Below, in pieces: positions 2 through 62,944 of a DNA stretch of 64,000 bases; position 1 is the first letter of the stretch, and each line of letters starts with the position of its first letter. Where the stretch lies: positions 9,734 to 73,733 of the forward strand of contig DASRWC010000011.1 in the NCBI GenBank assembly GCA_035654795.1. Direction: 5' to 3'. Origin of the DNA: Flavobacteriaceae bacterium (GTDB lineage Bacteria; Bacteroidota; Bacteroidia; Flavobacteriales; Flavobacteriaceae). The notes below the pieces were generated by a model. That model was not told the origin of the DNA. It saw only the letters and a program-made list of their open reading frames with translations, and searched no databases. A program made the position numbers and the translations under genes.

Positions 2-760
2 TCGCTCAATGCGATTCGGTATGCCATGGAATATCTTAGGGAGGAATCTGTAAACTTCTTTATTCTTCATGTCATTCCTGATGATCAGTTGAACGGTTTT
101 TCCGGCAATACACCCTTTGAAGATCAGGTTCTGAGAAAACTCATCGCAGAAGGAATCGTTTTTAATAAAGATCATCGTTTTTTCCCTGTAAAGGAGACAG
201 CTTCATTAGTCGAGTCGGTTAGAAAGCAGGTTGATGATAAAAAAATAGATTTAATAGTGATGGGTACCAAGGGAATCACAAGATCTCCTGAAGGCTCCGT
301 GAGCAGTCATACCTATGAGGTTATTACCAAAGTGAAATGTCCCATCCTTGTTGTTCCGGAACACGCTGTTTTTAATGAGCAGTCGAATATTTCGTTTGTG
401 ACAGATTACAATTGTATTTATCGAAATGAAGTTTTGGACACATTGTCAAAAACCTTAAAGTTACACAATAGCTCTTTGAGGGTTTTAAAGCCACGAGTCA
501 AGAATAGACCTTTGACGGCGGGGCAAATCGATAATAAGGGATTCATTCATTATTTCTTCAGAGACAGAGATCATAGTTTTCATTTTTTAGAAAAAGAGAA
601 TCTCGAAGAAGGTATTCAAGATTTCGTGGATACCTACAAAATAAAGATGGTGGCTATTCCGGCAAGAAATTTAAATTTTATTCAGAAATTGATGCTAAGA
701 TTTTCTTCCGAGAAAATTAATTATCATACTGTTGTTCCTTTCCTTGTAATTCACGAGTAG
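2..760 (+). CDS. Universal stress protein family, two-domain; 5' end cut by window edge
   Basis: Reading frame is open from base 2 (SLNAIRYAMEYL), matching the S-x-NA-x-x-x-Y N-terminal motif of the three downstream paralogs. Contains IDLIVMGTKG and CPILVVPE motifs. Second, degenerate USP domain ends VVPFLVIHE. Confidence 0.85.
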   Translation, partial: SLNAIRYAMEYLREESVNFFILHVIPDDQLNGFSGNTPFEDQVLRKLIAEGIVFNKDHRFFPVKETASLVESVRKQVDDKKIDLIVMGTKGITRSPEGSVSSHTYEVITKVKCPILVVPEHAVFNEQSNISFVTDYNCIYRNEVLDTLSKTLKLHNSSLRVLKPRVKNRPLTAGQIDNKGFIHYFFRDRDHSFHFLEKENLEEGIQDFVDTYKIKMVAIPARNLNFIQKLMLRFSSEKINYHTVVPFLVIHE

Positions 761-986
761 CGCCAAATTCTTTCTCAATAGGATGATCTTCGTAGAAGTT
801 TTCGAAGGTTTTTTCAGTTTTGTAGTCATCTTTAAGGACTTGGAACACCGTGAACAGGAAAAGAACCTCTCCGGCCATTGTCATATAAAAAACGACATTG
901 AAAGGAAAATCCATAGAGGCGAAGAGGGCCACGATCAATAGGAGTATTGAAGTGATAATCACATAAGCAATGGGTGAGACTTTCAT
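717..986 (-). CDS. Small hypothetical membrane protein (about 2 TM helices)
   Basis: ATG at 984..986 (MKVSPIAYVIITSILLLIVALF..). Two hydrophobic helices followed by a charged tail. Its 3' end overlaps the convergent USP gene by 44 nt. No recognisable family. Confidence 0.4.
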   Translation of the reverse strand: MKVSPIAYVIITSILLLIVALFASMDFPFNVVFYMTMAGEVLFLFTVFQVLKDDYKTEKTFENFYEDHPIEKEFGATRELQGKEQQYDN

Positions 987-1054
987 AATCTTTTTTTTCA
1001 AATTACAAAAGATCCTTTTTCATCCTTCCCAAGAATTCCCTAAAGAATATTTTC

Positions 1055-1068
1055 CTGATGGTTGTCAG
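1055..1068 (+). promoter_or_regulatory. Crp/Fnr-like box CTGAT-GGTT-GTCAG upstream of the three-gene USP operon
   Basis: TGA-N6-TCA core. The centre (1061.5) is 29.5 nt before TATCTTTA at 1091. Confidence 0.4.
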
Positions 1069-1090
1069 TATTACAGTAATGTGAATTTCC

Positions 1091-1098
1091 TATCTTTA
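1091..1098 (+). promoter_or_regulatory. Candidate -7 box TATCTTTA (one mismatch to TAnnTTTG)
   Basis: Read directly. Lies 30 nt upstream of the ATG at 1128. Confidence 0.35.
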
Positions 1099-1127
1099 TC
1101 CATTATTGGCAGTAAAAGACAGGTTAA

Positions 1128-1973
1128 ATGCAAAAAATTTTAATTCCAACAGATTTATCACAAAATGCTCTCCGTGCCATTCATTATGCGACGGAATTGT
1201 TTAAACATGGCCCCACTCGCATTTTTCTGCTGCATGCTTATGCCGATGAGGTTTATGACCTGAAAAATCAAAGACAGGACCGTGAGTTTGATGAATTAAA
1301 GCGAGAAGTTTTTATTCGTACAGATTCTGCTCTTGAGATGTTAAAAAAGGAGATTTTTGTTCTGTCTCCCAATCCGAAACACAGCGTGCAGTGTCAGCCT
1401 GAATTTGGTATGTTGGTGGATGCAGTGAATGATTGGGTGGAAAAGGAGAATATTGATGTTGTGGTCATGGGCACTAAGGGGCAAACGGCAGACAAGAAAA
1501 TGACTTTTGGGAGTAACACCCTTCAGGTAATCAAATATGTCAAATGCCCGGTGCTTGCGGTACCTGAGGCGAGCAAACTTGAAAACCCGAAAAACATTGT
1601 TTTTGCCACTGATTTTCTTCTTCCTTATAAAAGAAGAGAATTGAAACTACTCTCGAATCTTGCCAAGCGCTTTGCTGCAAGAATTCATTTTCTTCATATC
1701 TCAAATTTCTCTCAGCTATCGTTACGGCAGCAGGATAATAAAGCTTTTTTAGAAGCTATGTTGAGTGAGAATCATCTTGCTTTTCATCAAACAGAAGAAA
1801 AGGATATCACTAAGGCCGTCAATAAATTTATTGAAGAGAAAGAAATGGATATGTTAGTAATGGTCAATACGCGCCATTCTTATTTAGAAAATATCTTATA
1901 TCAATCTACAATCGAAAAGATTGGATTAAATATTGAAATTCCATTTTTAGTTTTACAAAACTTGCCGCGTTAA
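1128..1973 (+). CDS. Universal stress protein family, two-domain
   Basis: ILIPTDLSQNALRAIHYA N-terminus. G-TK-G-x9-GS nucleotide-binding loop (MGTKGQTADKKMTFGSN). CPVLAVPE motif. C-terminal domain lacks the G-x2-G loop. Confidence 0.9.
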   Translation: MQKILIPTDLSQNALRAIHYATELFKHGPTRIFLLHAYADEVYDLKNQRQDREFDELKREVFIRTDSALEMLKKEIFVLSPNPKHSVQCQPEFGMLVDAVNDWVEKENIDVVVMGTKGQTADKKMTFGSNTLQVIKYVKCPVLAVPEASKLENPKNIVFATDFLLPYKRRELKLLSNLAKRFAARIHFLHISNFSQLSLRQQDNKAFLEAMLSENHLAFHQTEEKDITKAVNKFIEEKEMDMLVMVNTRHSYLENILYQSTIEKIGLNIEIPFLVLQNLPR

Positions 1974-1977
1974 TTAT

Positions 1978-2829
1978 ATGAAAAGAATTTTAGTACCTAC
2001 AGATTTTTCAGGCAATGCTTATTCTGCCTTACTCTATGCTTGTAAACTTTATTCGAAAGAAAATGTTCATTTTGCCATTCTCCATTCTTTTGAAGCAGAG
2101 CTTAGTCAATTGACCAGTAGGGTAGATGTAGGACGATCTGATGAAATGTTAAAAACACTCACAGACAATGCTGAGCAAGACGGCCAGCGCTTACTGGATC
2201 AATTAAATGTTGATAAAGGACCAAGTAATCATACGTATGAAGTGATTGCAACACCGCAACCTCTACTGAAGATTATCAATGAAATGATATCCGAAGATGT
2301 TGTAGACTTAGTGGTTGTCGGTAGTAAGGGAAGAACCGGAGCTGAGGGTGTCTTGATAGGAAGTACTGCTATAAATGTTACTGAGGGCATTGAAGGCTGT
2401 CCTTTATTGATTGTACCAAATGATGTTCATTTCGTAATTCCCCGAAAAATCGCCTTTGCTTCAGATTTTAATGATTTTTATCCCATTTCTACCATTAAGG
2501 CTATTACTAGGCTGGTGAGACATTTTGGTTCCGAAATTTATTTAGCTCACGTCGGTTCCGAAAATGAATTGGAAGCTCATCAGCGTGAGAATATGGAGAA
2601 GTATGAAAACGATTTGTCTGAATATGAGCACTACTTCAGGTTCCTTGAGAGGAAAGGAAATATCTCCGGGACATTGCATGACTTTGCCGACGATGAAAGT
2701 ATTGATCTCTTCTCTCTGGTATATCACAAGCATGCATTTTTGAAAAAAATATTCAGAGAACCTGTTGTAAATAGGGTAGGAAGACATACAAACATCCCGA
2801 CACTTGTAATACCATTTCCAAATAAATAA
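1978..2829 (+). CDS. Universal stress protein family, two-domain
   Basis: ILVPTDFSGNAYSALLYA N-terminus, VGSKGRTGAEGVLIGST loop. Starts 4 nt after the previous paralog. Confidence 0.9.
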   Translation: MKRILVPTDFSGNAYSALLYACKLYSKENVHFAILHSFEAELSQLTSRVDVGRSDEMLKTLTDNAEQDGQRLLDQLNVDKGPSNHTYEVIATPQPLLKIINEMISEDVVDLVVVGSKGRTGAEGVLIGSTAINVTEGIEGCPLLIVPNDVHFVIPRKIAFASDFNDFYPISTIKAITRLVRHFGSEIYLAHVGSENELEAHQRENMEKYENDLSEYEHYFRFLERKGNISGTLHDFADDESIDLFSLVYHKHAFLKKIFREPVVNRVGRHTNIPTLVIPFPNK

Positions 2830-2839
2830 ATCCACTTCA

Positions 2840-3691
2840 ATGTCCTATAAAGTTCTAATTCCCACCGATTTTTCAAAGAATGCATTTAATGCCATTCAAT
2901 ATGCTTTTTCGCTATTTAAAGAAAGATCGTGTGAGATCCTGCTGGTGCATTCTTATTACCTATCCGGACTTGACAAAGGAAATCTTTTGGTTCCGGAGCC
3001 TTCTGATGAAGAACGAAAACGAGTGGAGCAAACAGCTGCCAGACAGATGGATGAGCTGCGAGGAACCTTGGAAGAGACGCATTCAAACCATAAACATACA
3101 CTAAGATTTTTGACTGTTTTCGGACCCTTCTATAAAGTGATGGAAGAGACTGTTGAAAAAGAGAACATCGATCTGGTTATAATGGGTACTAAGGGAAGAA
3201 GTAATAAAAATTCGGTTATTTTAGGAAGTAATGCCGTGAATGTTATGGAGAAAGTGCGATTTTGTCCGGTTATGGCTATTCCATCCGATGCAGAATTTAA
3301 AAAACCCAATGAAATCGTTTTCCCTACCAGTTTCCGAAGCCAATATCGAGAGCATGAGCTTGAAGTTCTTGTGGATTTAGCCTCTTTATTAAATGCACCC
3401 ATTCGAATACTGCACATCACCAATGATGACACCCTTACTGAACGACAAGAAGAAAATAAGCAATATCTTGAGTCTATCCTCCTACCTGCCACTTTTACAC
3501 ATCACCGATTATACAACATGAGAGTGAATGATGGAGTACGCACTTTTATTCAGAGTCGAGAGAGTGAAATGATAGCTTTTGTGAATAAGAGACACAACTT
3601 TTTTGGAAGTATCTTCTCCAATCCTATGGTAAAAGAATTAGGAACGCATACAGAAGTTCCTATACTTGCCATGCATGACAAACGCGATTAA
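2840..3691 (+). CDS. Universal stress protein family, two-domain
   Basis: VLIPTDFSKNAFNAIQYA N-terminus, MGTKGRSNKNSVILGSN loop. Starts 10 nt after the previous paralog and is followed by a strong hairpin. Confidence 0.9.
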   Translation: MSYKVLIPTDFSKNAFNAIQYAFSLFKERSCEILLVHSYYLSGLDKGNLLVPEPSDEERKRVEQTAARQMDELRGTLEETHSNHKHTLRFLTVFGPFYKVMEETVEKENIDLVIMGTKGRSNKNSVILGSNAVNVMEKVRFCPVMAIPSDAEFKKPNEIVFPTSFRSQYREHELEVLVDLASLLNAPIRILHITNDDTLTERQEENKQYLESILLPATFTHHRLYNMRVNDGVRTFIQSRESEMIAFVNKRHNFFGSIFSNPMVKELGTHTEVPILAMHDKRD

Positions 3692-5738: not shown

Positions 5739-7700
5739 ATGAAAAAAACCATTCATTATTTATTTTCTCTTGTTATAGTCGCCGGATTGGTGAGCTGTAA
5801 TAATGGAGACAAAAAGAAACGCGGAGGCGGCGGATTAGCCACCAGTGCTGCTGAGCGCGTGTATGTAGCCCCGGGAGAGCACGATGAATTCTACGGATTT
5901 ATGTCAGGAGGATTTAGTGGTCAACTGGGAGTTTACGGACTTCCATCAGGGAGATTGTTAAAAGTGCTTCCGGTATTTTCTCAAAACCCTGAAAACGGTT
6001 GGGGATATACAGAAGAAACTAAGCCAATGCTTAATACTTCTTTCGGATTTGTGCCTTGGGATGACTCTCACCACCCTGATATCTCCCAGACAAATGGTGT
6101 ACTTGATGGACGATGGATTTTCATCAACGGAAACAACACCCCACGTATCGCCAGATTGAGTCTTGAAAGCTTTAGAACCGAAGAAATTATTGAGATTCCT
6201 AACTCTGCCGGTAACCACAGCTCCTCATTCATTACTGAAAATACAGAATATGTGGTAGCCGGTACTCGTTTCTCTGTTCCCGTTCCTCAGAAAGATATGT
6301 CTATTAAAGAGTATAAAGGAAACTTTAAAGGAGCTCTTACCTTTATCGCGGTTGACCAAGAAACCGGAAGAATGAATATTAAATTCCAGCTAATGATGCC
6401 CGGATTTAACTATGACCTTTCTCACCCCGGACGCGACAAGAGCCACGGCTGGTTCTTCTTTACAACCTATAACACTGAGGAAGCTCATACACTTCTTGAA
6501 GTAAACGCTTCTCAAAACGATAAAGACTATATCGCAGCTGTTAACTGGAAGAAAATTGAAGAGTACGTGAACAACGGTGGAGGAACAAAAACCAAAACCC
6601 GTTATGCACATAACGTAATGGATGCAAGTACCCATATGGCTACTTCTACAATTAAAGAAGAAGTTTTACAAGTAGATCCGCTTGAAGTACCGGGAGCTGT
6701 ATATTTCCTTCCAACTCCAAAGTCACCACACGGTTGTGACGTGGACCCAACAGGAGAATATATTATAGGAAACGGAAAACTTTCTGCTGACTTGACTGTT
6801 CACAGCTTCAGCAAAATGATTGATGCTATTGAAAACAAGAAGTTTGATGGAGAAGCCTACGGAATTCCAATTCTAAAGTTTGACGAGATTGTTGCAGGTG
6901 TTGTAAAACAACCCGGTCTTGGTCCACTCCACACAGAGTTTGATGACAAAGGAAACGCTTATACCACTTTCTTTATCTCTTCTGAAGTTGTAAAATGGAA
7001 AGTTGGAAGCTGGGAAGTATTAGACCGTCAGCCTGTTTATTACTCAGTAGGTCACGGAATGATTCCGGGAGGAAACTCACGCAAGCCATTCGGAAAATAT
7101 TTTGTAGCGCTTAACAAGATTACAAAAGACAGATATTTGCCTACAGGACCTGAGTTAACCCAGTCTGCGCAGTTATTTGACATTAGCGGAGAGAAAATGG
7201 AGTTACTGTTAGATTTCCCAACTATTGGAGAGCCTCACTACGCAGCCGGTATCCCTGCTGAACTTGTAGCACCAAAATCCAGACAGATTTATAGACTTAA
7301 TGAGAATAAACACCCATATGCAACATTGTCTGATGCTGATGCACGCGTTGAGAGAAAAGGAAATGAAGTTCATGTCTATATGGGAATGATTCGAAGCCAC
7401 TTTAATCCGGATAATATTGAAGGAATTAAAGTAGGAGATAAAGTTTACTTCCACGTGACAAACCACGAGCAAGACTTTGACGTACCTCACGGATTTGCAG
7501 TAATTGGAGCCAACAATGCCGAGATGCTGATTATGCCGGGTGCTACTGAAACATTGTTGTGGGAACCAAAAGAAGTTGGGGTATGGCCATTCTATTGTAC
7601 CGATTTCTGTTCTGCGCTTCACCAGGAAATGCAAGGATATATTCGAGTGAGCCCTGCAGATTCTAACATCCAGTTATCTTGGAGCTTAGGAGAAGATTAG
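5739..7700 (+). CDS. nosZ: Nitrous-oxide reductase, clade II (Sec-dependent, lipoprotein type)
   Basis: 653 aa. Signal peptide with lipobox GLVSC|NN and no twin-arginine motif. CuZ His ligand candidates: DSHHP, GNHSS, SPHGCDV, GPLHTEF, SVGHG, GEPHYA. C-terminal CuA motif C-TDF-C-SAL-H-QE-M (7596..7631). Confidence 0.97.
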   Translation: MKKTIHYLFSLVIVAGLVSCNNGDKKKRGGGGLATSAAERVYVAPGEHDEFYGFMSGGFSGQLGVYGLPSGRLLKVLPVFSQNPENGWGYTEETKPMLNTSFGFVPWDDSHHPDISQTNGVLDGRWIFINGNNTPRIARLSLESFRTEEIIEIPNSAGNHSSSFITENTEYVVAGTRFSVPVPQKDMSIKEYKGNFKGALTFIAVDQETGRMNIKFQLMMPGFNYDLSHPGRDKSHGWFFFTTYNTEEAHTLLEVNASQNDKDYIAAVNWKKIEEYVNNGGGTKTKTRYAHNVMDASTHMATSTIKEEVLQVDPLEVPGAVYFLPTPKSPHGCDVDPTGEYIIGNGKLSADLTVHSFSKMIDAIENKKFDGEAYGIPILKFDEIVAGVVKQPGLGPLHTEFDDKGNAYTTFFISSEVVKWKVGSWEVLDRQPVYYSVGHGMIPGGNSRKPFGKYFVALNKITKDRYLPTGPELTQSAQLFDISGEKMELLLDFPTIGEPHYAAGIPAELVAPKSRQIYRLNENKHPYATLSDADARVERKGNEVHVYMGMIRSHFNPDNIEGIKVGDKVYFHVTNHEQDFDVPHGFAVIGANNAEMLIMPGATETLLWEPKEVGVWPFYCTDFCSALHQEMQGYIRVSPADSNIQLSWSLGED

Positions 7701-7719
7701 TAAGTTAGTTTTTGGTTGT

Positions 7720-7788
7720 GAAAATACTAGATTGGTGATTGGTAGTATTTTCATTGAAGGCGGAGGTTGGTTGATTTCCTCCGCCTTC
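7720..7788 (+). other. Two adjacent perfect stem-loops just downstream of the nosZ stop, without a following T-tract
   Basis: Hairpin 1: GAAAATACTA (7720-7729) / TAGTATTTTC (7743-7752), with loop GATTGGTGATTGG. Hairpin 2: GAAGGCGGAGG (7756-7766) / CCTCCGCCTTC (7778-7788). An A-rich tract follows. Confidence 0.6.
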
Positions 7789-7895
7789 TAAAACCAAAAA
7801 AAATAAAAAAAACGACCATAATATTTAAAGCTCTACAACCTAAACCTTAGTAATTAATTGCGCCGAAGTATTTGCTTCGACCACAAAACACTGAT

Positions 7896-8531
7896 ATGAA
7901 AAAAGCAGGATTATTAATGATTGTGGGATCCCTTCTTCTATTGGGATTATTCAAATTTCCATTATGGAACATTATGCTAGGTGCACCGCAATATCCGGAT
8001 CCTCTGGGAATGGACATTTATATAGAAGGTATTAAAGGAGTAAAAGAATTTGATATTCAAAACATCGACGGTTTAAATCACTATATCGGGATGAAAACAA
8101 TCCCCAAAAACCACGAGATGTGGGAGTTTTCCGTGTTCCCGAAGGTAATCATGGGAATGGTAGCTCTAGGTGTAATTATCGGAATCCTTGGATTCATCGG
8201 AAAGGTAAGCTATAAATGGTTTCTAGGATGGTTTATTTTAATGTCTGTTTTAGGCATTCTAGGAATGTATGATTTTAATGCGTGGTTAACTGATTATGGA
8301 TCCAATTTAGATCCTCACGCAATTATGAGTTATACAAAACCTGACGGAACCCCTATGACTTACAAACCACCTCTTATCGGTTATCAGAAAATGCTCAATT
8401 TTGATGTGGATTCATGGCCTGCTTTAGGAGGATATTTAATGATGGCAGGGATGGCTTTGGTTTTTTTATCTTATTTTGTAGGAAAATCAGAGTACAAGAA
8501 GAAAGAAAAATTTAAACCCGCAATGGCATGA
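7896..8531 (+). CDS. Integral membrane protein of the nos cluster (NosB-like, about 4 TM helices)
   Basis: ATG at 7896 (MKKAGLLMIVGSLLLLGLF). Four hydrophobic helices with two predicted periplasmic loops. It sits directly downstream of nosZ, as reported for nosB in clade II clusters. Its stop overlaps the nosL start (ATGA at 8528-8531). Confidence 0.55.
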   Translation: MKKAGLLMIVGSLLLLGLFKFPLWNIMLGAPQYPDPLGMDIYIEGIKGVKEFDIQNIDGLNHYIGMKTIPKNHEMWEFSVFPKVIMGMVALGVIIGILGFIGKVSYKWFLGWFILMSVLGILGMYDFNAWLTDYGSNLDPHAIMSYTKPDGTPMTYKPPLIGYQKMLNFDVDSWPALGGYLMMAGMALVFLSYFVGKSEYKKKEKFKPAMA

Positions 8532-8968
8532 CCCGACTTTCAGTTTTTTTAATCGGAATAACTACTTTGCTTCTCACTGCTTGTGAAGTAGCACCGGAAA
8601 AAATAGAGTATGGAACAGATGCTTGCAGTTATTGTGACATGACAATAGTTGATCCAAAACACGCTTCACAAGTGGTCACTAAAAAAGGAAAAAATTATAA
8701 ATATGATGCCGTGGAATGTATGGTTCATCATCTTCAGGATGCTTTGGCTGATCAGCCCATAGCTCTAACTCTCGTTGCCGATTTTGATAATCCCGGAGAA
8801 TTGACAGATGCAGCCAAAGCCGGGTATTTGGTCAGTGAGGAGATAAAAAGCCCAATGGGGGCAAATCTGGCATCTTTTAAAAACGAGGAAAAAGCAAAAG
8901 CTGCTCAGCAGCTGTACAATGGAAAAACTTATTCCTGGAGCACCATCCGGGAACATTTAAAGCTCTAA
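8528..8968 (+). CDS. nosL: Copper chaperone lipoprotein NosL
   Basis: Lipobox LLLTAC|EV. CSYCDM motif and a conserved DAVECM segment. Positioned before nosD. Confidence 0.9.
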   Translation: MTRLSVFLIGITTLLLTACEVAPEKIEYGTDACSYCDMTIVDPKHASQVVTKKGKNYKYDAVECMVHHLQDALADQPIALTLVADFDNPGELTDAAKAGYLVSEEIKSPMGANLASFKNEEKAKAAQQLYNGKTYSWSTIREHLKL

Positions 8969-9006
8969 ATCAACCAAAAAAAGAGCCAATCACAAAAAAA
9001 AAATAA

Positions 9007-10260
9007 ATGGACCTAAATCATTTTGCTTTTATCCTTTTCCTGATAATCGGAGGAAATGGCGGATTTGCAAAAACGATTACAGTTTGTTCTTCTTGCGAAG
9101 TCAAGACCATAAAACAAGCTCTTGAATTGGCTTCTGACGGCGACACGATCCTCGTGAAGCCCGGAATATATAAAGAAGCGAATATCAAAATCAACAAATC
9201 CATTTCACTCATAGGAGAAGGAAAGCCCACCATAGACGGAGAAGAAAAGGGAGAAATAATAACCATAGGAGCTCCCCATGTAACTGTTGACGGATTTCTT
9301 ATTAAAAACGTAGGAAACAGTTTCACTAAAGATTATGCAGCCGTACGCATTGCAAACACCTCCGGATTTACCATCCAAAATTTAGAACTAAACAATCTAT
9401 ATTTCGGAATTTATCTTCAAAAAGCTGAAGATGGTAAGGTTCTGAACAACATTATCAAAGGTGACGCACAAAGCGAATTCAATTCCGGAAATGGGATTCA
9501 TCTTTGGAAATCGTCTAAAGTAGAGATTGCAGGAAATGATGTGCAGCGCGTGAGAGATGGGATCTATCTAGAGTTTTCAGATCAAGTTCACATTAGCAAC
9601 AACACGAGTAAGTATAATGTAAGGTACGGATTGCACTTTATGTTTAGCAATAACAATTATGCTCGTGACAATTATTTCGAGACTAATGGGGCCGGTATTG
9701 CGCTTATGTTTTCTCGAGACATGGAATTGACAGGAAATGTCATTAGAAAAAATTGGGGAACAGCTGCTTATGGTGTACTTCTTAAAGAAATAAATAATGC
9801 CGTAATAGCCTACAATACTTTTGAACTGAACACAGTGGCCGTTACCGTTGATGTTAGTACCAACATTGATTATTTTCATAATGATTTTATAAGCAACGGA
9901 TACGGACTTCGCATTCGAGGTGCTTCTTATAACTCGAAAATCAATAACAACAATTTTCTTTATAACTCCTTTGATTTAGCATATAACGGTAAGCTTAATG
10001 GCAATAATTTTGACGGAAATTACTGGAGTGGATACACCGGATATGACCTTGACAGAAATGGTATTGGAGATGTACCTTATAGGCCGGTGAAGCTTTTTTC
10101 TTATGTAGTCAATAGATCCTCACAGGCAATTATCTTGATGAGAAGCCTGTTTATTGACATTATCGATTTTTCTGAAAAGGTCTCACCAATTTTTACACCG
10201 GACAATTTGTTCGATGAAAAACCTAAAATGAAAAAAATCAACCATGATCGAAATAAATAA
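9007..10260 (+). CDS. nosD: Periplasmic beta-helix maturation protein NosD
   Basis: 417 aa. Signal peptide. Repetitive N/G/I-rich parallel beta-helix repeats (NNxIxGN pattern). The 3' end overlaps nosF by 17 nt. Confidence 0.92.
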   Translation: MDLNHFAFILFLIIGGNGGFAKTITVCSSCEVKTIKQALELASDGDTILVKPGIYKEANIKINKSISLIGEGKPTIDGEEKGEIITIGAPHVTVDGFLIKNVGNSFTKDYAAVRIANTSGFTIQNLELNNLYFGIYLQKAEDGKVLNNIIKGDAQSEFNSGNGIHLWKSSKVEIAGNDVQRVRDGIYLEFSDQVHISNNTSKYNVRYGLHFMFSNNNYARDNYFETNGAGIALMFSRDMELTGNVIRKNWGTAAYGVLLKEINNAVIAYNTFELNTVAVTVDVSTNIDYFHNDFISNGYGLRIRGASYNSKINNNNFLYNSFDLAYNGKLNGNNFDGNYWSGYTGYDLDRNGIGDVPYRPVKLFSYVVNRSSQAIILMRSLFIDIIDFSEKVSPIFTPDNLFDEKPKMKKINHDRNK

Positions 10261-10954
10261 TCTATATAAAAAATTTGGAAAGAATGAGGTGCTTAAAGGC
10301 ATTGATCTTTCAATAAAAAAGGGAGGGATTTTTGCGGTTTTAGGCCCTAACGGCTCAGGAAAAACTACTTTAATCAAATCAATACTCGGAATGGTAATAC
10401 CTAATTCCGGAGAGATTTTGGTAAATGGAGTTGCTTCAAAAAACAATTATAAATATCGAGATAAAATTGATTATCTGCCTCAAATTGCCAATTTTCCCGA
10501 AAACCTGAAGGTAAAGGAACTCATTGCAATGATTAAAGATCTTCGGAATTCGAAGACAGATAACGATGTAGAACTCATTGATATATTTAAGCTTGAGCCT
10601 TTCTTGGACAAGAAGCTCGTAAATTTATCCGGTGGAACCAAGCAAAAAGTTAATCTGGTCTTGACCTTTATGTTTGATAGCCCGATAATGATTCTCGATG
10701 AGCCAACTAATGGTCTGGATCCTATTTCTCATCTACGTTTAAAGGAATTGATCTTTAGAGAGAAGACCAAGGGTAAGACCATTTTGGTTACTTCTCATAT
10801 TCTAAATTTTGTAGAAGAGATTGCCGATGAGATTGTCTTCCTGTTGGAAGGGAAAATTTATTTTAAAGGAAGTACGTCCGAGCTTAAATCTCAGACAGGT
10901 CAGCCCGATTTTGAACACGCAATAGCCTCAATTTTATCCTCATCCTATGCTTAA
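10244..10954 (+). CDS. nosF: ABC transporter ATPase NosF
   Basis: Walker A GPNGSGKTT, signature LSGGTKQK, Walker B MILDEPT, H-loop TSHIL. Overlaps nosY by 8 nt. Confidence 0.92.
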   Translation: MIEINNLYKKFGKNEVLKGIDLSIKKGGIFAVLGPNGSGKTTLIKSILGMVIPNSGEILVNGVASKNNYKYRDKIDYLPQIANFPENLKVKELIAMIKDLRNSKTDNDVELIDIFKLEPFLDKKLVNLSGGTKQKVNLVLTFMFDSPIMILDEPTNGLDPISHLRLKELIFREKTKGKTILVTSHILNFVEEIADEIVFLLEGKIYFKGSTSELKSQTGQPDFEHAIASILSSSYA

Positions 10955-11729
10955 GATATTAAAATATAGTTTCTTCGATTTAATGCGAAGCCGTTGGAGC
11001 TACGTATATTTCCTGTTCTACTTGTTATTGGGCATTGTTTTACTTTTTCTTAATGACGATTTACCCAAAGCAGTAATTACTTTGATGAACGTTATCATCA
11101 TTCTTGTTCCTCTGATCGGGACCATTTTTGGAGTGATGTATTATTACAACTCGAGAGAATTTACAGAATTACTTTTAGCACAGCCCGTGAAACGAAGTTC
11201 TATCTTCCTGGGTCAATATTTTGGAGTGGCTACCTCACTGGCTATGAGTTTAATTATCGGATTGGGAGTCCCCTTTGTTTTTTACGGAATTTTTTACAGT
11301 GATGCTATCTGGGACTTTGTCCTTTTATTGGTTACCGGAGGATTTCTCACCTTCATTTTCACGGCTCTGGCTTTCGTAATTGCTTTAGCCAACGAAAATC
11401 GAATTAAAGGATTTGGTTATGCCATACTTGTATGGTTATTATTGGCGGTGATCTATGATGGATTGTTCCTGATGTCGTTATTGTATTTTGAGGATTATCC
11501 TTTGGATAAGTTTTCTTTGATTGCCACCATGTTCAATCCTGTGGACCTTTCCCGCGTGCTGATTCTGTTAAAATTGGATATTTCGGCACTTCTAGGATAT
11601 ACCGGAGCAGTTTTTCATAAATTCTTCGGAACAAATTTAGGATTGATTCTGTCTGTGACCATGCTTACCTTATGGGTAGCAATTCCAACCTTTTTTATCT
11701 GGAGAATCTCAAAAAAGAAAGATTTTTAA
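10947..11729 (+). CDS. nosY: ABC transporter permease NosY
   Basis: 260 aa with about 6 hydrophobic helices. Translationally coupled to nosF. Last gene of the cluster. Confidence 0.9.
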   Translation: MLKILKYSFFDLMRSRWSYVYFLFYLLLGIVLLFLNDDLPKAVITLMNVIIILVPLIGTIFGVMYYYNSREFTELLLAQPVKRSSIFLGQYFGVATSLAMSLIIGLGVPFVFYGIFYSDAIWDFVLLLVTGGFLTFIFTALAFVIALANENRIKGFGYAILVWLLLAVIYDGLFLMSLLYFEDYPLDKFSLIATMFNPVDLSRVLILLKLDISALLGYTGAVFHKFFGTNLGLILSVTMLTLWVAIPTFFIWRISKKKDF

Positions 11730-33099: not shown

Positions 33100-34248
33100 A
33101 TGAAAAATTTTTTATATATCGTTTTTGCTTTATTGCTTGTCAATTGCGGAAAACAACAAACTGCTGAAGAGTTGACCCCACACGGGAAAGATGTAGATGA
33201 AGAGATTATTGTTGTGACCAAAGCTCAATTTTTATCGGCTAAGATGACGCTTGGAACTTTTGAAGAGAAGCCTTTTGCAGAATTTGTTCGCGCAAACGGG
33301 ATAATCAATGTTCCTCCTCAAAACCGAGCTATAATCAGTGCATTTGCCGGAGGGTTTGTAAAAGATCTGCCGGTTCAAGTGGGAGCTGCCATAGCCAAAG
33401 GACAACGTATCGTCACTCTTGAAAATCCGGAATTTATAGTACTCCAGCAACAGTATGTAGAACTTGCCGAACAATTGAACTACTTAAAATCTGAATATGA
33501 ACGGCAGCAGGTCATGTTAAACGAGAAAATAACGTCGCAGAAAAGTTTTTTAAAATCTGAAAGTGATTACAAATCTGCTCTGGCCAGAGTGAACAGTTTG
33601 AAAAAGAATCTGGAGATGTTGAATATAAGTCCGACTGCTGCAGCAAATGGACTTATCACTTCAAATGCGGGTATTTCCAGCCCAATTTCCGGGTATGTTA
33701 CCAATGTTTGGGTTATTCGTGGCGCCTATGTTTCTCCCTCAGATCCTGTGATGGAGGTGGTCAATACAGATGAAATTCTTCTAGAGCTGAAAGTTTTTGA
33801 AAAAGATTTAATGCAGGTCGAAAAGGAACAAGAAATTCTTTTTCGAATTCCTGAAGTTTCTAAAGAAATTTTTCACGGAACAGTTACGTTGATAGGAACC
33901 TCAATCGATTCCAATTCCAGAATGGCCACGGTTTTAGGAAAGATCCGCAATAAAGAGAATTATAACTTTTCTACCGGAATGTTTGTAGAAGCTGATATTG
34001 TTACTTCGGAAATAACCTATAATGCCATCCCGGAAAATGCAGTGGTAGAATTTGAAGGAGAAAATTACGTTTTGGTTTTACAGAAGGAAGAAAATGATTC
34101 CTATCAATTTTTACCGATGAAAGTCACTGTTGGTGCCTCTTATAAAGGCTATGTGATTATTGAAAATGACAAGGATTTTGGTCCCGATGCAAAAATCTTA
34201 ACAAAAGGAGGCTTTGTATTGCTTAAAGAAGGCGGCGGGGACCACTAA
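33100..34248 (+). CDS. Efflux RND periplasmic adaptor (CzcB/HlyD family) lipoprotein
   Basis: Lipobox LLVNC|GKQ. Barrel-sandwich and coiled-coil hairpin pattern. Starts 7 nt after the RND/OMF gene. Confidence 0.88.
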   Translation: MKNFLYIVFALLLVNCGKQQTAEELTPHGKDVDEEIIVVTKAQFLSAKMTLGTFEEKPFAEFVRANGIINVPPQNRAIISAFAGGFVKDLPVQVGAAIAKGQRIVTLENPEFIVLQQQYVELAEQLNYLKSEYERQQVMLNEKITSQKSFLKSESDYKSALARVNSLKKNLEMLNISPTAAANGLITSNAGISSPISGYVTNVWVIRGAYVSPSDPVMEVVNTDEILLELKVFEKDLMQVEKEQEILFRIPEVSKEIFHGTVTLIGTSIDSNSRMATVLGKIRNKENYNFSTGMFVEADIVTSEITYNAIPENAVVEFEGENYVLVLQKEENDSYQFLPMKVTVGASYKGYVIIENDKDFGPDAKILTKGGFVLLKEGGGDH

Positions 34249-35333: not shown

Positions 35334-36173
35334 ATGATTAAAAAAATATTAGTTCCGACAGATTTTTCCAAATCCTCAGAAAATGCGCTGGAGGTGGCAG
35401 CGGCCATTGCTAAACATCACGATGCTGAAATCATTCTTCTTCATATGATGGGTCTTGCTGACGGTATGGCAACAAAAAGTGATCAGCAAGAAGTTTTTAA
35501 AGCTTTATATTTCATGCGCTATGCCGAGCAACAATTTCAAAAATTGATGGAGAAAGAATACCTGCAAGGTGTTCAGATAACTGATACTGTTCACAACTAT
35601 GTAAATTTTAGCGAGATCAACACGGTATCCAGAGAGGTGGGCGCACATCTTATAGTTATGGGATCACACGGGGCAACCGGATTAAAAGAAGTTTTTGTGG
35701 GAAGTAACACAGAAAAAGTGGTACGCACATCAGATGTTCCTGTACTTGTAATTAAACATCAAACAACCAATTTCACCCCAAAATTGGGAGTTTTTGCTTG
35801 TGATTTTCAATCTGCGGCCGTAGGACCCTACAAACGAGCCAAAAGAATGTTTGAACTTCTCGGTCTTGAGATGCAACTTCTATATATCAATCTGGCAGGA
35901 GATTTTAGAAGCACACGTGAAATTGAAAAACGAATTATTAAGTTCTTGACCGATGCCGGCGAGGACAATCCGGTAATGACTGCAAATAAAGTTATTCAAT
36001 ATAACGACTACTCCGTAGAAGCCGGAATTTTCGCTTACAGTCAAGTAGCAAATGCCGATTTGATTGCCTTACCCACAGCAGGACGTCAAGGATTAGCACA
36101 TTTCTTCTCCGGAAGTATTGGAGAAGACGTAGTGAATCATTCAGATTTACCGGTGATGACTTTCCGCGTTTAA
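35334..36173 (+). CDS. Universal stress protein family, two-domain
   Basis: ILVPTDFSKSSENALEVA N-terminus, MGSHGATGLKEVFVGSNT (G-x2-G-x9-GS), DVPVLVIK. The second domain ends LPVMTFRV. Confidence 0.9.
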   Translation: MIKKILVPTDFSKSSENALEVAAAIAKHHDAEIILLHMMGLADGMATKSDQQEVFKALYFMRYAEQQFQKLMEKEYLQGVQITDTVHNYVNFSEINTVSREVGAHLIVMGSHGATGLKEVFVGSNTEKVVRTSDVPVLVIKHQTTNFTPKLGVFACDFQSAAVGPYKRAKRMFELLGLEMQLLYINLAGDFRSTREIEKRIIKFLTDAGEDNPVMTANKVIQYNDYSVEAGIFAYSQVANADLIALPTAGRQGLAHFFSGSIGEDVVNHSDLPVMTFRV

Positions 36174-45045: not shown

Positions 45046-46569
45046 CTAAAGAATTTGTCGTACAAACTGCTCCCATTTCCTAAATTTTTCTTCTGACATT
45101 ACTTTTTCCATTTTCACCTGCCCACCTTTCTTTTTTTGGTGACCGTTCCATTCGTGGAATACTTGTGGAGGGACAGTGGTAACTAAAACATCTTTAAGGG
45201 CTTTGGATCGTGCCACTTTATAGTTCTTGTTTGCTTCCATCAGCGCTTTATCCAAAGACTGCGAAAGATGATCTGAATCAACTTCGCCTTCTACTCCCAG
45301 ATACCAATGATGTATATAGTCTCCGTCTTTTTTAACGGCTGCCAGTGTAAATTCAGGAATTTTAATATCGAATTTTTCTTCCATTTCCATAAGTGCAACT
45401 TCCATTTTATTTACTGAAAGCTGAGATCCTACCACGTTTAAGAAAAATTTGGTTCGTCCTGTTATTATGATTTCTGCCCGTTCTTTATCGGTAAATTTTA
45501 TGGTGTCTCCAATTAAGTATCTCCAGGCACCTGAGACGGTACTGATAATTAATACATAATCTTTTCCTTCCTCTACTTCCTCCAGAGTAAGTGCCGGTGC
45601 ATCTTGTGATAACGATCCATCATCCAGTATGTATTCAGGCTTAAAAGGAACGAACTCAAAATAAATACCATTATCCGTGATCAGCTGCATTGATGTTGTT
45701 TCAGGTCTGTTTTGCAATGCCAGGAATCCTTCTGAGGCTAAATAGGTATCTAAAATGGTTATGGGGTGTGCAAGAAGCTCTTCATAGCTCTTTTTATATG
45801 GTGCAAAGGCAACACCGCCTGTGGCATATGCTTGTAAATTGGGCCAAATTTGGTGAATATTTTCTACCTCGTGATAGGCTATCACCCGTTTCAGCATTAA
45901 CTCAATCCACGAGGGGATGCCGCTTAGAGCGCCAATGTCCCAGTTTTTTGCATGTTTAGCTATGGATTCTACACGTTCATCCCAATCATCGATGAGGGCA
46001 ATTTCTTCTCCCGGTTTATAAAATCCGCGAAACCAAAAAGGAATGCGACTGGCGCTTATGCCACTTATTTCCCCTTCCAAAAACTGTCCGTTTTCGTCAA
46101 GTTTGGTGCTACTCCCGAGCATCATGATTTCTTTTTCAAAAAAATCGGAAGGCATATCAAAATTGGCCATGGCAGCAACCTGCTTGATCCCGGCGTTTTG
46201 TATAGCATCAATCATTTCCTCGGTCACCGGGATTTTTTTTGAGGTTTTGCCGGTGGTGCCGCTGCTTCTGGCAAAATAATGAGGCACCCCGGGCCAAGTC
46301 ACATCTTTTATGCCTTTTTGTGTTTGACACCACCATTGAGTTTCCATCTTATGATAATCAAAATAGGGTATGCGCTCTGCAAAGGCTCTTTGAATGTCAG
46401 CGGCCTCAAGTATGTCATAAAATCCATAGTATTTTCCGAAAGCCGTGTCCTTCGCTTTGTCAAGAAGTTCTTTTAAAACATCTTTCTGTGCCTCTAATGG
46501 ATTGATTTCTGAAGAAAGCGCTTCTTTTACGTCGATTGCTGCTTTGATGATTGATCCAAGGATTGCCAT
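45046..46569 (-). CDS. GH3 family (acyl-adenylate-forming) protein
   Basis: FARSSGTTGKTSKKIP adenylation motif. 507-aa length and layout typical of bacterial GH3-domain proteins. Confidence 0.85.
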   Translation of the reverse strand: MAILGSIIKAAIDVKEALSSEINPLEAQKDVLKELLDKAKDTAFGKYYGFYDILEAADIQRAFAERIPYFDYHKMETQWWCQTQKGIKDVTWPGVPHYFARSSGTTGKTSKKIPVTEEMIDAIQNAGIKQVAAMANFDMPSDFFEKEIMMLGSSTKLDENGQFLEGEISGISASRIPFWFRGFYKPGEEIALIDDWDERVESIAKHAKNWDIGALSGIPSWIELMLKRVIAYHEVENIHQIWPNLQAYATGGVAFAPYKKSYEELLAHPITILDTYLASEGFLALQNRPETTSMQLITDNGIYFEFVPFKPEYILDDGSLSQDAPALTLEEVEEGKDYVLIISTVSGAWRYLIGDTIKFTDKERAEIIITGRTKFFLNVVGSQLSVNKMEVALMEMEEKFDIKIPEFTLAAVKKDGDYIHHWYLGVEGEVDSDHLSQSLDKALMEANKNYKVARSKALKDVLVTTVPPQVFHEWNGHQKKKGGQVKMEKVMSEEKFRKWEQFVRQIL

Positions 46570-56570: not shown

Positions 56571-58244
<1,674 letters not shown>

Positions 58245-61414: not shown

Positions 61415-62944
61415 TTATTCCCATTCAATGGTAGCAGGCGGTTTCGAGCTAATGTCATAGACCACTCTATTAACGCCATTTACTTCATTTATTATTTTAT
61501 TACTAACGTCTTGCAAAAATTCATAGGGTAGCGGAATAATATCTGCCGTCATTCCGTCAACCGAATTTACGGCTCTCAATGCCACCACTCGCTCATAAGT
61601 CCTTTCGTCTCCTGAAACTCCTACACTGTTTATGGGTAAAAGAATGGCTCCTGCCTGCCAAACGTTGTCATATAAATTCCATTCTCTCAATTGGTTAATG
61701 AAAATTGCATCCACTTCTTGCAAAATACGAACTTTTTCGGCAGTAATATCTCCTAAAATTCGAATAGCCAGACCGGGTCCGGGGAATGGGTGCCGCCCGA
61801 GAAGATCGGGATGAATTCCCAATTCTTTGCCCACACGGCGCACTTCATCCTTAAAAAGCATTCTCAAAGGCTCCACAATTGACAGTTTCATAAAATCCGG
61901 CAATCCTCCCACGTTATGATGACTTTTAACGGCTACAGATTTTCCGTCGGCGGAAACGCTTTCTACAACATCGGGATAAATGGTTCCTTGCGCCAGCCAT
62001 TTTACATCAGAAATTTGATGAGCTTCGTCATCAAAAACTTCAATAAATGTCCGACCGATAATTTTACGTTTTTCTTCAGGATCGCTCACGTCTTTTAAAG
62101 CAGTCAGAAAACGCTCTGAGGCATCCACACCTTTTACATTCAAGCCCATGTCTTTGTACTGATGCAGCACATTTTCAAATTCATTCTTCCGTAGCAATCC
62201 ATGATTCACGAAGATGCAGAAAAGGTTTTTTCCTATTGCCTTATTTAAGATTACCGCCGTGACCGTAGAATCTACTCCTCCGCTCAATCCTAAAACGACT
62301 TTGTCATTTTGAAGGTCTTCTTTCAATTTTTTTATAGAGTTATCTACAAACGCTTGTGGAGTCCAAGTAGGCACTATATTAGCAATGTTTATCAGGAAGT
62401 TCTCGATTATTTTTTTCCCCTGGGTGGTGTGATGTACTTCAGGATGAAATTGAAACCCGAAAGTGTTTTCGTTTGATAATTGAAATGCAGCTATTTCTCC
62501 TTCTACTGATTGTGCTAAGACCTGAGCTGATGCCGGTAGTGCCTTTATTTTATCTCCTAGGCTGTACCATACCTGAAAATTGTCGTTGAGATCTTGAAAA
62601 ATTTTATTGGTTTGATCCACTTTTTGTAGGTGCGTTTTTCGATATTCTCTTTTTTCGGCTTTAGCAATTTCACCTTCGGCCATGTGTGCAAGGAGTTGCG
62701 CACCATAACCAATTCCAAGCACCGGAATCTTGGTCAAGAATGACGAAAGTTGTGCTATGGGTGCATTTTCGGAATGTACTGATGCAGAGCTCCCCGAGAG
62801 AATAACAGCTTGATAGTTTTCCGGATTTTCAGGCAGGTTGTGGTAAGGATGTATTTCACAAAATACATTTAGCTCCCTCACTCTTCGAGCAATTAGTTGG
62901 GTGTATTGCGAACCAAAATCTAAAATAAGAACAGTGTTTTGCAT
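61415..62944 (-). CDS. guaA: GMP synthase; ATP-pyrophosphatase domain intact, glutamine amidotransferase domain with atypical active-site residues
   Basis: [38 protein letters not shown], and C-terminal KPPATIEWE. The nucleophile-elbow motif reads LGIGYGAQ instead of G-x-C-Y-G-x-Q. Confidence 0.95.

Follow-up and report, generated by a model that had tools for sequence, protein, structure and literature searches.

A 64,000-nucleotide stretch of the Flavobacteriaceae bacterium assembly GCA_035654795.1 (contig DASRWC010000011.1, positions 9,734 to 73,733; hereafter the window) carries a guaA gene for a GMP synthetase (GMPS) homologue in which glycine replaces the catalytic cysteine of the glutamine amidotransferase (GATase) domain. 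GMP synthetase is a textbook glutamine amidotransferase. In the window protein the glutaminase is very probably dead, and purifying selection acts on the synthetase half with the same strength as on canonical orthologues. With moderate confidence, we read the window GuaA as an ammonia-dependent GMP synthetase that carries a pseudo-GATase domain.

By every structural and positional criterion examined, the window protein belongs to the GuaA family. It matches the Pfam domains GATase (PF00117, residues 6-186, 1.4e-35), NAD_synthase and GMP_synt_C (PF00958, residues 418-508, 7e-42), reaches 741 bits with the NCBIfam GuaA equivalog NF000848 (cut-off 400), and aligns over its full length with the E. 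coli enzyme 1gpm (HMMER, E=4.6e-164). The C-terminal half lies well above the cut-off of TIGR00884 (467 versus 338.75 bits) and matches the archaeal ATP-pyrophosphatase (ATPPase) subunit structures 6jp9 and 2dpl; the N-terminal half is barely above the NCBIfam N-domain model (186.6 versus 172.15 bits). Motif mapping finds all residues described as required for adenyl-XMP formation and XMP binding in place (D325/E328, K340/H342/H343/N344, R493, K501 and E507). Within the PF00958 domain R493, K501, I506 and E507 are kept, the residues essential in the GMPS C-terminal domain being those listed in PMC10526850. Judged by its sequence, the protein nevertheless fails the defining feature of triad glutamine amidotransferases, the nucleophile Cys. 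The NCBI record of the identical protein (HZW76893.1, 'MAG TPA: Flavobacteriaceae bacterium') bears the PGAP name 'glutamine-hydrolyzing GMP synthase', in which 'glutamine-hydrolyzing' is probably wrong.

In the HMMER alignment with 1gpm, Gly79 of the window protein stands over Cys86 of E. coli, whose elbow reads GVCYGMQ. An earlier note on this DNA, made from the letters alone, had claimed a Gly codon in place of the catalytic Cys, a Leu codon within a WYSLGD segment and an SGSSA turn; re-translation and alignment bear out all of these, the relatives reading WMSHGD and SGSPFS at the latter two sites. The same note had described the QFHPEV context and the whole ATP-pyrophosphatase domain as intact, which was likewise confirmed. 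Among 121 aligned sequences, namely the 120 closest database homologues and E. coli, Cys occupies the nucleophile column in 111, and Gly is found there in 10 of the 120 best database homologues. A Cys codon was present in each of the 81 canonical genes compared as DNA (TGT in 71, TGC in 10), a set made up of 80 reference-genome loci among the matches listed and the gene of Aequorivita sp. H23M31 (contig L003). All 80 reference-genome loci listed are canonical save one (L009), which gave no match to the motif expression. A homologue search with the N-domain returned only short fragments of canonical proteins, all with Cys and at most 56% identical to the window N-domain, and no members of the broken-triad clade described below. 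The Cys-His-Glu triad has been called 'invariant across GMPS sequences' in a 2023 review (PMC10526850).

Loss of the nucleophile is accompanied by changes in the glutamine pocket. In Plasmodium falciparum GMPS (PfGMPS), W167, N169 and D172 bind glutamine (PMC4673825), and by shared motif the WMSHGD segment would be the counterpart of these residues. The engineered PfGMPS mutant C89A has no glutamine-dependent activity and keeps its NH4Cl-dependent activity intact (PMC4673825). Because such mutants of homologues lose the glutaminase reaction, the same loss is to be expected here, and the earlier note's proposal of a glutaminase-dead GuaA is thus supported. Coordinates of these and other features are collected in the table.

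Table. Coordinates of guaA, its motifs and other genes in the window, and of Gly-type pyrG genes on related contigs.
Feature	Coordinates	Strand	Basis or remark
guaA, two-domain GMP synthetase homologue, 509 aa	61415..62944	minus	ORF, Pfam, NCBIfam, 1gpm alignment, AF2
N-terminal class I GATase-like domain, residues 1-190, predicted catalytically dead	62375..62944	minus	PF00117, pLDDT, dN
SGSSAS, altered oxyanion-strand motif, Pro to Ser at residue 53	62780..62797	minus	canonical ILSGSPFS; E. coli SGGPES
Nucleophile elbow LGIGYGAQ	62696-62719		1gpm alignment
Gly79, codon GGT, replacing the nucleophile Cys (E. coli Cys86)	62708..62710	minus	alignments, re-translation
WYSLGD, altered glutamine-binding segment	62552..62569	minus	alignments; canonical WMSHGD
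Leu129 within WYSLGD, codon CTA	62558-62560
His167-Pro-Glu169, rest of triad kept (QFHPEV)	62438..62446	minus	alignments, re-translation
ATP-PPase P-loop SGGVDS, residues 221-226, intact	62267..62284	minus	alignment, re-translation
Lid-loop motif VKSHHN	61913..61930	minus	alignments; canonical IKSHHN
C-terminal dimerisation / XMP-binding domain, intact, ends KPPATIEWE	61418..61693	minus	PF00958
pyrG (CTP synthase), canonical GATase (GICLGMQ, QYHPEY); internal control	56571..58199	minus	motif reading
Gly-type pyrG, contig L002	16057-17694
Gly-type pyrG, contig L089	6638-8275
Gly-type pyrG, contig L088	15463-17076
Gly-type pyrG, contig L211	10557-12170
Nitrous-oxide reductase (nos) cluster	5739-11729
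NosZ-type propeller protein	5739-7700
NosL	8528-8968
NosD	9007-10260
ABC ATPase of nos cluster	10244-10954
Likely NosY	10947-11729
Four tandem universal-stress-protein (Usp) genes	26-3691
RND-OEP open reading frame, 1446 aa	28752-33092
HlyD-type membrane-fusion protein	33100-34248
Fifth Usp, tandem-domain	35334-36173
GH3-family protein	45046-46569

The alignment with GuaA of related Flavobacteriia that the earlier note had asked for was made, and it shows Cys in the canonical relatives and a broken triad in the window's own clade as well. From the homologue list and a profile search, 15 broken-triad clusters at 90% identity were obtained, falling into five lineages (A-E). Lineage A, which comprises the window protein with P0001/P0002 as well as P0003 and P0004, has Gly for Cys and keeps His and Glu. 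Lineages B (P0020, P0025, P0055, P0066 and P0112) and C (P0053) combine Cys to Gly with His to Leu, lineage D (P0263) has both of these changes together with Gln to Arg in the elbow, and lineage E (P0095, P0250 and P0251) keeps Cys and has His to Leu. Glu169 is found in every one of the 16 clade sequences. Gly is encoded by GGT in the window and in its twin contig L084, by GGC in L001, L002 and L087, and by GGA in L085/L086; from this variation among lineages it follows that the substitution is old and that Gly has been maintained. The twin contig (ENA assembly ERZ27256727, 91.6 kb) matches the window at 99.91% identity over 12,586 nt, and the P0004 protein recurs unchanged on contigs of two or more separate sequencing runs.

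Gene order was compared between the window, ten related contigs (L001, L002, L084-L089, L210 and L211) and the canonical L003. The common order is M14 peptidase, BshC, GuaA, LysM/periplasmic-binding protein, OsmC and DUF922, continued beyond DUF922 by QSregVF_b, (a spermine-synthase-like protein), PyrG and YidC, and the canonical guaA in the complete genome of Aequorivita sp. H23M31 lies in the same surroundings. The window guaA is a positional orthologue at the ancestral guaA locus of an uncultured Aequorivita relative. In a neighbour-joining tree of five concatenated flanking proteins (1436 columns, 200 bootstrap replicates), one well-supported group takes in lineages A-E together with canonical Aequorivita, and within it (D,(C,(E,B))) is recovered at 98%. 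The GuaA tree joins A-E to the exclusion of canonical Aequorivita with 100% bootstrap in the C-domain and in the N-domain separately. Clade-wide changes in the C-domain (I339V, M444S/L, T462V and loss of P335) fall at positions where at least 98% of the 109 canonical relatives agree. Most likely, the functional change arose once in the ancestor of A-E and was followed by piecemeal loss of different triad residues, as is expected in descendants that no longer need the triad; the alternative to a single origin is convergence of the C-domain changes. The replacement of Cys by Gly itself arose 2 to 4 times within the group, depending on topology.

Two further observations concern the twin contig. 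Over the 12,586 aligned bases it differs from the window at 11 positions, seven of which (four non-synonymous, three synonymous) lie within 336 nt of the dead GATase domain (window 62342-62676, guaA codons 90-201; binomial P = 2.9e-9). This clustering could reflect a small recombination tract or strain variation concentrated in a relaxed domain. The twin (lineage A) and L211 (lineage E, ERZ27252335) are ENA assemblies with neighbouring accessions, and two dead-glutaminase lineages may therefore come from the same study or habitat.

The two domains of the broken-triad proteins have evolved at different rates. The ratio of non-synonymous divergence (dN) in the N-domain to that in the C-domain ranges from 2.9 to 5.3 in the clade, as compared with a median of 1.48 (5-95% range 1.04-2.07) over 3240 canonical pairs. 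For instance, P0003 and P0004 are 92% identical in the C-domain and 64% identical in the N-domain, while the N-domains of canonical pairs whose C-domains share 90-95% identity are on average 82% identical. Sites that are invariant in canonical proteins are altered in at least one clade member at 46 of 95 positions in the N-domain and at 34 of 232 in the C-domain. The ratio of non-synonymous to synonymous divergence (omega) of the C-domain is ~0.04-0.07 in the clade and 0.02-0.06 in canonical pairs. For the clade N-domain it is roughly 0.1-0.2 (with synonymous divergence saturated), and this domain is far from neutral and almost without indels. Its helix alpha1 (S12-L25) and P168-E169-V170 are kept; the nucleophile, the oxyanion strand and WMSHGD are degraded. 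In the Plasmodium and Methanocaldococcus enzymes, the alpha1 helix and the triad-bearing loop make up the ATPPase contact surface (PMC10526850). In the AlphaFold2 (AF2) model, blocks of the N-domain have confidence values (pLDDT) of 65-90, and values are low only in the lid loop (320-357) and a few C-terminal loops. Foldseek retrieved bacterial GMPS with the whole model at TM 0.78-0.83 and GATase subunits with the N-domain at TMt 0.84-0.87. The N-domain remains under constraint and is predicted to fold.

Broken triads were also found far outside this clade. A motif scan of JGI/ENA metagenome contigs (L090-L209) with P-x-[LF]-G-[IVM]-G-Y-G-x-Q gave at least 120 matches. Among the 120 matches listed, 40 are two-domain GuaA homologues of full length that have Gly in place of the nucleophile and form 32 clusters at 70% identity; they are 41-62% identical to the window protein and 37-61% to that of E. 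coli. Both His and Glu are kept in 27 of these 40, the remainder being without one or both. The combination of P60 to Ser with Cys to Gly was considered as a mark of a nucleophile move to Ser53 and rejected, as it shows no association with retention of His and Glu. Among 113 full-length representatives of 50%-identity clusters, the nucleophile position holds Cys in 103, Gly in 8 and Asn in 1, and the triad is broken in 12; this rate of about one in ten applies to representatives, which over-sample divergent sequences, and is not a genome frequency. Triad loss is recurrent in unrelated bacteria, with Gly the strongly preferred replacement.

One residue of the lid loop varies together with the triad. 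The window protein keeps the K, H, H and N of IK(T/S)HHN and has Val in place of Ile. All 110 canonical proteins (109 from Flavobacteriaceae and that of E. coli) have Ile at this position, and all 11 proteins of the Aequorivita-like broken-triad clade have Val. Among the cluster representatives, Ile is found in 100 of those with an intact triad and another residue in one, as against 7 and 5, respectively, of those with a broken triad (Fisher's exact test, 3e-5). The metagenomic Gly-type clusters among the matches listed divide into 13 with Ile and 14 with another residue (1.5e-10 against the same intact-triad representatives). The Ile is thus replaced in ~40-50% of independent broken-triad lineages, mostly by Val, which suggests that it matters mainly for the glutamine-coupled reaction. 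A second candidate was the Met in the SVGVMGD loop: all 110 canonical proteins have it, all 11 clade members have Ser or Leu instead, and 28 of the 31 metagenomic Gly-type GuaAs listed carry another residue. Its coupling to glutaminase loss was rejected because the column is variable in canonical enzymes (K in Coxiella, A in Thermus, R in Plasmodium) and among the representatives (M 37, K 27, Q 14); it serves as a clade marker only.

How such a protein could work is indicated by the biochemistry of its homologues. The ATPPase module can act on its own, without the GATase, and every studied GMPS can use external ammonia (PMC10526850). The Km of PfGMPS for NH4Cl is 8 mM in C89A versus 19 mM, and 2.8 mM in C89A/C113A; glutamine bound at the dead C89A site inhibits the ammonia reaction, and the isolated ATPPase domain has a kcat 5.9-fold below that of the full-length enzyme (PMC4673825). 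Loss of the nucleophile would therefore be harmless to GMP synthesis, the GATase domain worth keeping and its pocket worth degrading. In the mechanism that we propose, the N-domain would no longer hydrolyse glutamine, and the intact ATP-pyrophosphatase/dimerisation half would adenylate XMP and aminate it with free NH3/NH4+. The dead domain would be retained for still packing against the synthetase domain and stimulating it, and erosion of the glutamine pocket would relieve inhibition by glutamine. The substitutions, their fixation in the clade, the orthology by gene order and the unequal rates of the two domains are shown; the loss of glutaminase activity, free ammonia as the donor and the part played by the kept domain are what we infer for the window protein. 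Of the three options that the earlier note had named, free ammonia is favoured over a partner glutaminase or a second guaA because the gene occupies the orthologous position and its synthetase half is under selection of canonical strength. No paper describing a natural glutaminase-dead or paralogous GuaA was found in a literature search, and ammonia-dependent GMP synthesis by a natural GuaA has probably not been described before.

Several points weigh against ammonia-dependent synthesis as the function. The Km for NH4+ of canonical enzymes is high, ranging from 10.8 mM in P. falciparum and 26 mM in M. tuberculosis to 103 mM in E. coli and 174 mM in human (PMC10526850), and an enzyme restricted to ammonia needs high intracellular ammonia or an improved Km. 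His167 and Glu169 are kept in the window lineage, and residual or altered chemistry at the old site may thus persist. The flanking-gene tree is undecided between lineage A as sister to B-E (50.5% support) and lineage A as sister to canonical Aequorivita (42%). Finally, the genome may hold another source of glutamine-derived nitrogen.

In this last case, either another guaA of canonical type or a separate GuaA-type glutaminase docking in trans would lie elsewhere in the genome, and the window copy would be a specialised or auxiliary isoenzyme that uses ammonia, beside another GMP synthetase activity. We consider this unlikely, while giving it real weight. Two-subunit GMPSs do exist in archaea (PMC10526850), and Gly-for-Cys GuaAs are common in metagenomes and need not be the sole copies in their genomes. 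However, the gene sits at the ancestral guaA locus, and the selection on its synthetase half would be unexpected if the copy were redundant. A single locus was obtained from each of the 80 related reference genomes listed. A pseudo-GATase domain in cis would moreover occupy the docking surface of a separate subunit. The genomic scope of the search was the 64 kb window and 426 kb of flanks of Gly-type guaA genes. The window contains no further amidotransferase or glutaminase, and a GuaA-specific hidden Markov model found no GuaA-type stand-alone GATase in the 426 kb of flanks, in a search that missed even PyrG and that distant class I glutaminases would escape.

It is very improbable that the protein has left GMP synthesis for a moonlighting or regulatory role, with GMP coming from salvage. 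Moonlighting of GMPS is documented in eukaryotes (PMC10526850), but all known residues for adenyl-XMP formation and XMP binding are conserved here and the rate of evolution in the synthetase half is as low as that of canonical enzymes.

Equally hard to credit is a relocated nucleophile, for example one of the new serines of SGSSAS acting in lineage A with His167 and Glu169, by which the old site would still hydrolyse glutamine or another amide donor. Lineage A does keep His and Glu, the change of Pro53 puts a new hydroxyl on the oxyanion strand, and P60 to Ser occurs alongside Cys to Gly in 7 of the 40 unrelated metagenomic GuaAs listed. Against this stand the additional loss of His in the sister lineages, the degradation of the glutamine-binding WMSHGD motif and the retention of His and Glu in most Gly-type GuaAs whatever residue 60 is.

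An artefact of sequencing or assembly can be practically discounted, and so can decay of the gene into a pseudogene. A single T-to-G change does turn TGT into GGT and the source is a metagenome-assembled genome, but several substitutions accompany the change, as the earlier note had argued in rejecting a base-calling error. The open reading frame (ORF) is intact, the identical codon stands in an independent assembly, relatives from at least nine other samples or assemblies show the same loss, related lineages use other synonymous Gly codons, and a C-domain omega of ~0.05 speaks against decay.

CTP synthase offers a parallel case. The earlier note had contrasted guaA with the canonical pyrG in the same window, which holds true, and PyrG is canonical in lineage A, the window included. 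In lineages B and E, PyrG has Gly over E. coli Cys379 (LGIGLGMQ or FGIGMGMQ) with His and Glu kept, and further changes turn GGTMRLG into GGTMLLG or GSSMLLG. The Cys to Gly change in PyrG of these lineages points to a wider move away from glutamine. More tentatively, the Aequorivita-related lineage of free-living Flavobacteriaceae may have moved nucleotide amidation from glutamine to free ammonia, for GMP synthesis in the window branch and for GMP and CTP synthesis in the sister branches. It would then represent a recurrent, so far unrecognised class of ammonia-specific GMPS in which dead GATases serve as structural or activating modules and the lid loop marks channelling residues; we hold this broader proposal to be possible, at somewhat less than even chances.

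If ammonia dependence is true, the 'glutamine-hydrolysing' label and the metabolic models built on it are wrong for such organisms. GuaAs with broken triads are natural experiments on residues that serve only glutaminase coupling or ammonia channelling, such as the lid-loop Ile and the WMSHGD pocket; we know of no GMPS structure that shows an ammonia channel. That CTP synthase of the sister lineages shows a parallel loss suggests a bypass of glutamine, and of the ATP cost of glutamine synthetase, in the nucleotide synthesis of some bacteria.

The closest analogue is the carbamoyl-phosphate synthetase CPS1 of ureotelic vertebrates, which keeps an inactive class I GATase-like domain (Cys to Ser) and depends obligately on free ammonia (PMC4655335). 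The window GuaA likewise has a GATase-like domain with a replaced nucleophile beside an intact synthetase, and adds a bacterial case to the one that CPS1 provides for the persistence of pseudo-enzyme domains. In frog CPS1 functional loss can precede triad loss (PMC4655335), and the differing triad losses in lineages A-E suggest a similar course. CPS1, however, is another enzyme, found in another kingdom and with Ser for Cys; its use of ammonia is demonstrated, whereas that of the window GuaA is inferred. It is also a duplicated paralogue beside a glutamine-dependent CPS, whereas here an ancestral single-locus orthologue has changed. The nearest direct precedent is the engineered PfGMPS C89A: the P. 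falciparum mutants C89A and C89A/C113A concern the same enzyme altered at the same position; unlike these laboratory mutants, the natural proteins carry Gly together with many changes in the glutamine pocket and lid loop, all long fixed.

In the archaeal two-subunit GMPS (GuaAA and GuaAB), the ATPPase subunit needs no partner to make GMP when ammonia is supplied externally (PMC10526850). The C-terminal half of the window protein resembles this subunit, but the archaeal enzyme has an active, separate glutaminase where the window GuaA keeps a fused, dead one. The NAD+ synthetases (NadE) are PP-loop ATP-pyrophosphatases of which some natural forms use ammonia and others glutamine. Its ammonia-dependent forms are without the (nitrilase-type) glutaminase domain, whereas the window GuaA retains its domain as a pseudo-enzyme. 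The GuaA of Aequorivita sp. H23M31 (P0017) has the same locus, equal length and 72% identity to the window protein (~52% in the N-domain, ~82% in the C-domain). In contrast to the latter, its GVCYGAQ, SGSPFS, WMSHGD and IKSHHN motifs are all canonical.

Several other genes of the window were noted. The nos cluster is immediately preceded upstream by genes for a cytochrome c and a fasciclin-domain protein. The 1446-aa ORF joins a complete AcrB-type RND transporter (residues 5-1034) to an outer-membrane efflux protein (OEP) domain (residues 1290-1443), a fusion that would be unusual if real, and is followed by the gene for the membrane-fusion protein. The tandem Usp genes stand at the start of the window, apart from the fifth. 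The GH3 family is best known from plants, and its member in the window is acyl-acid amido synthetase-like.

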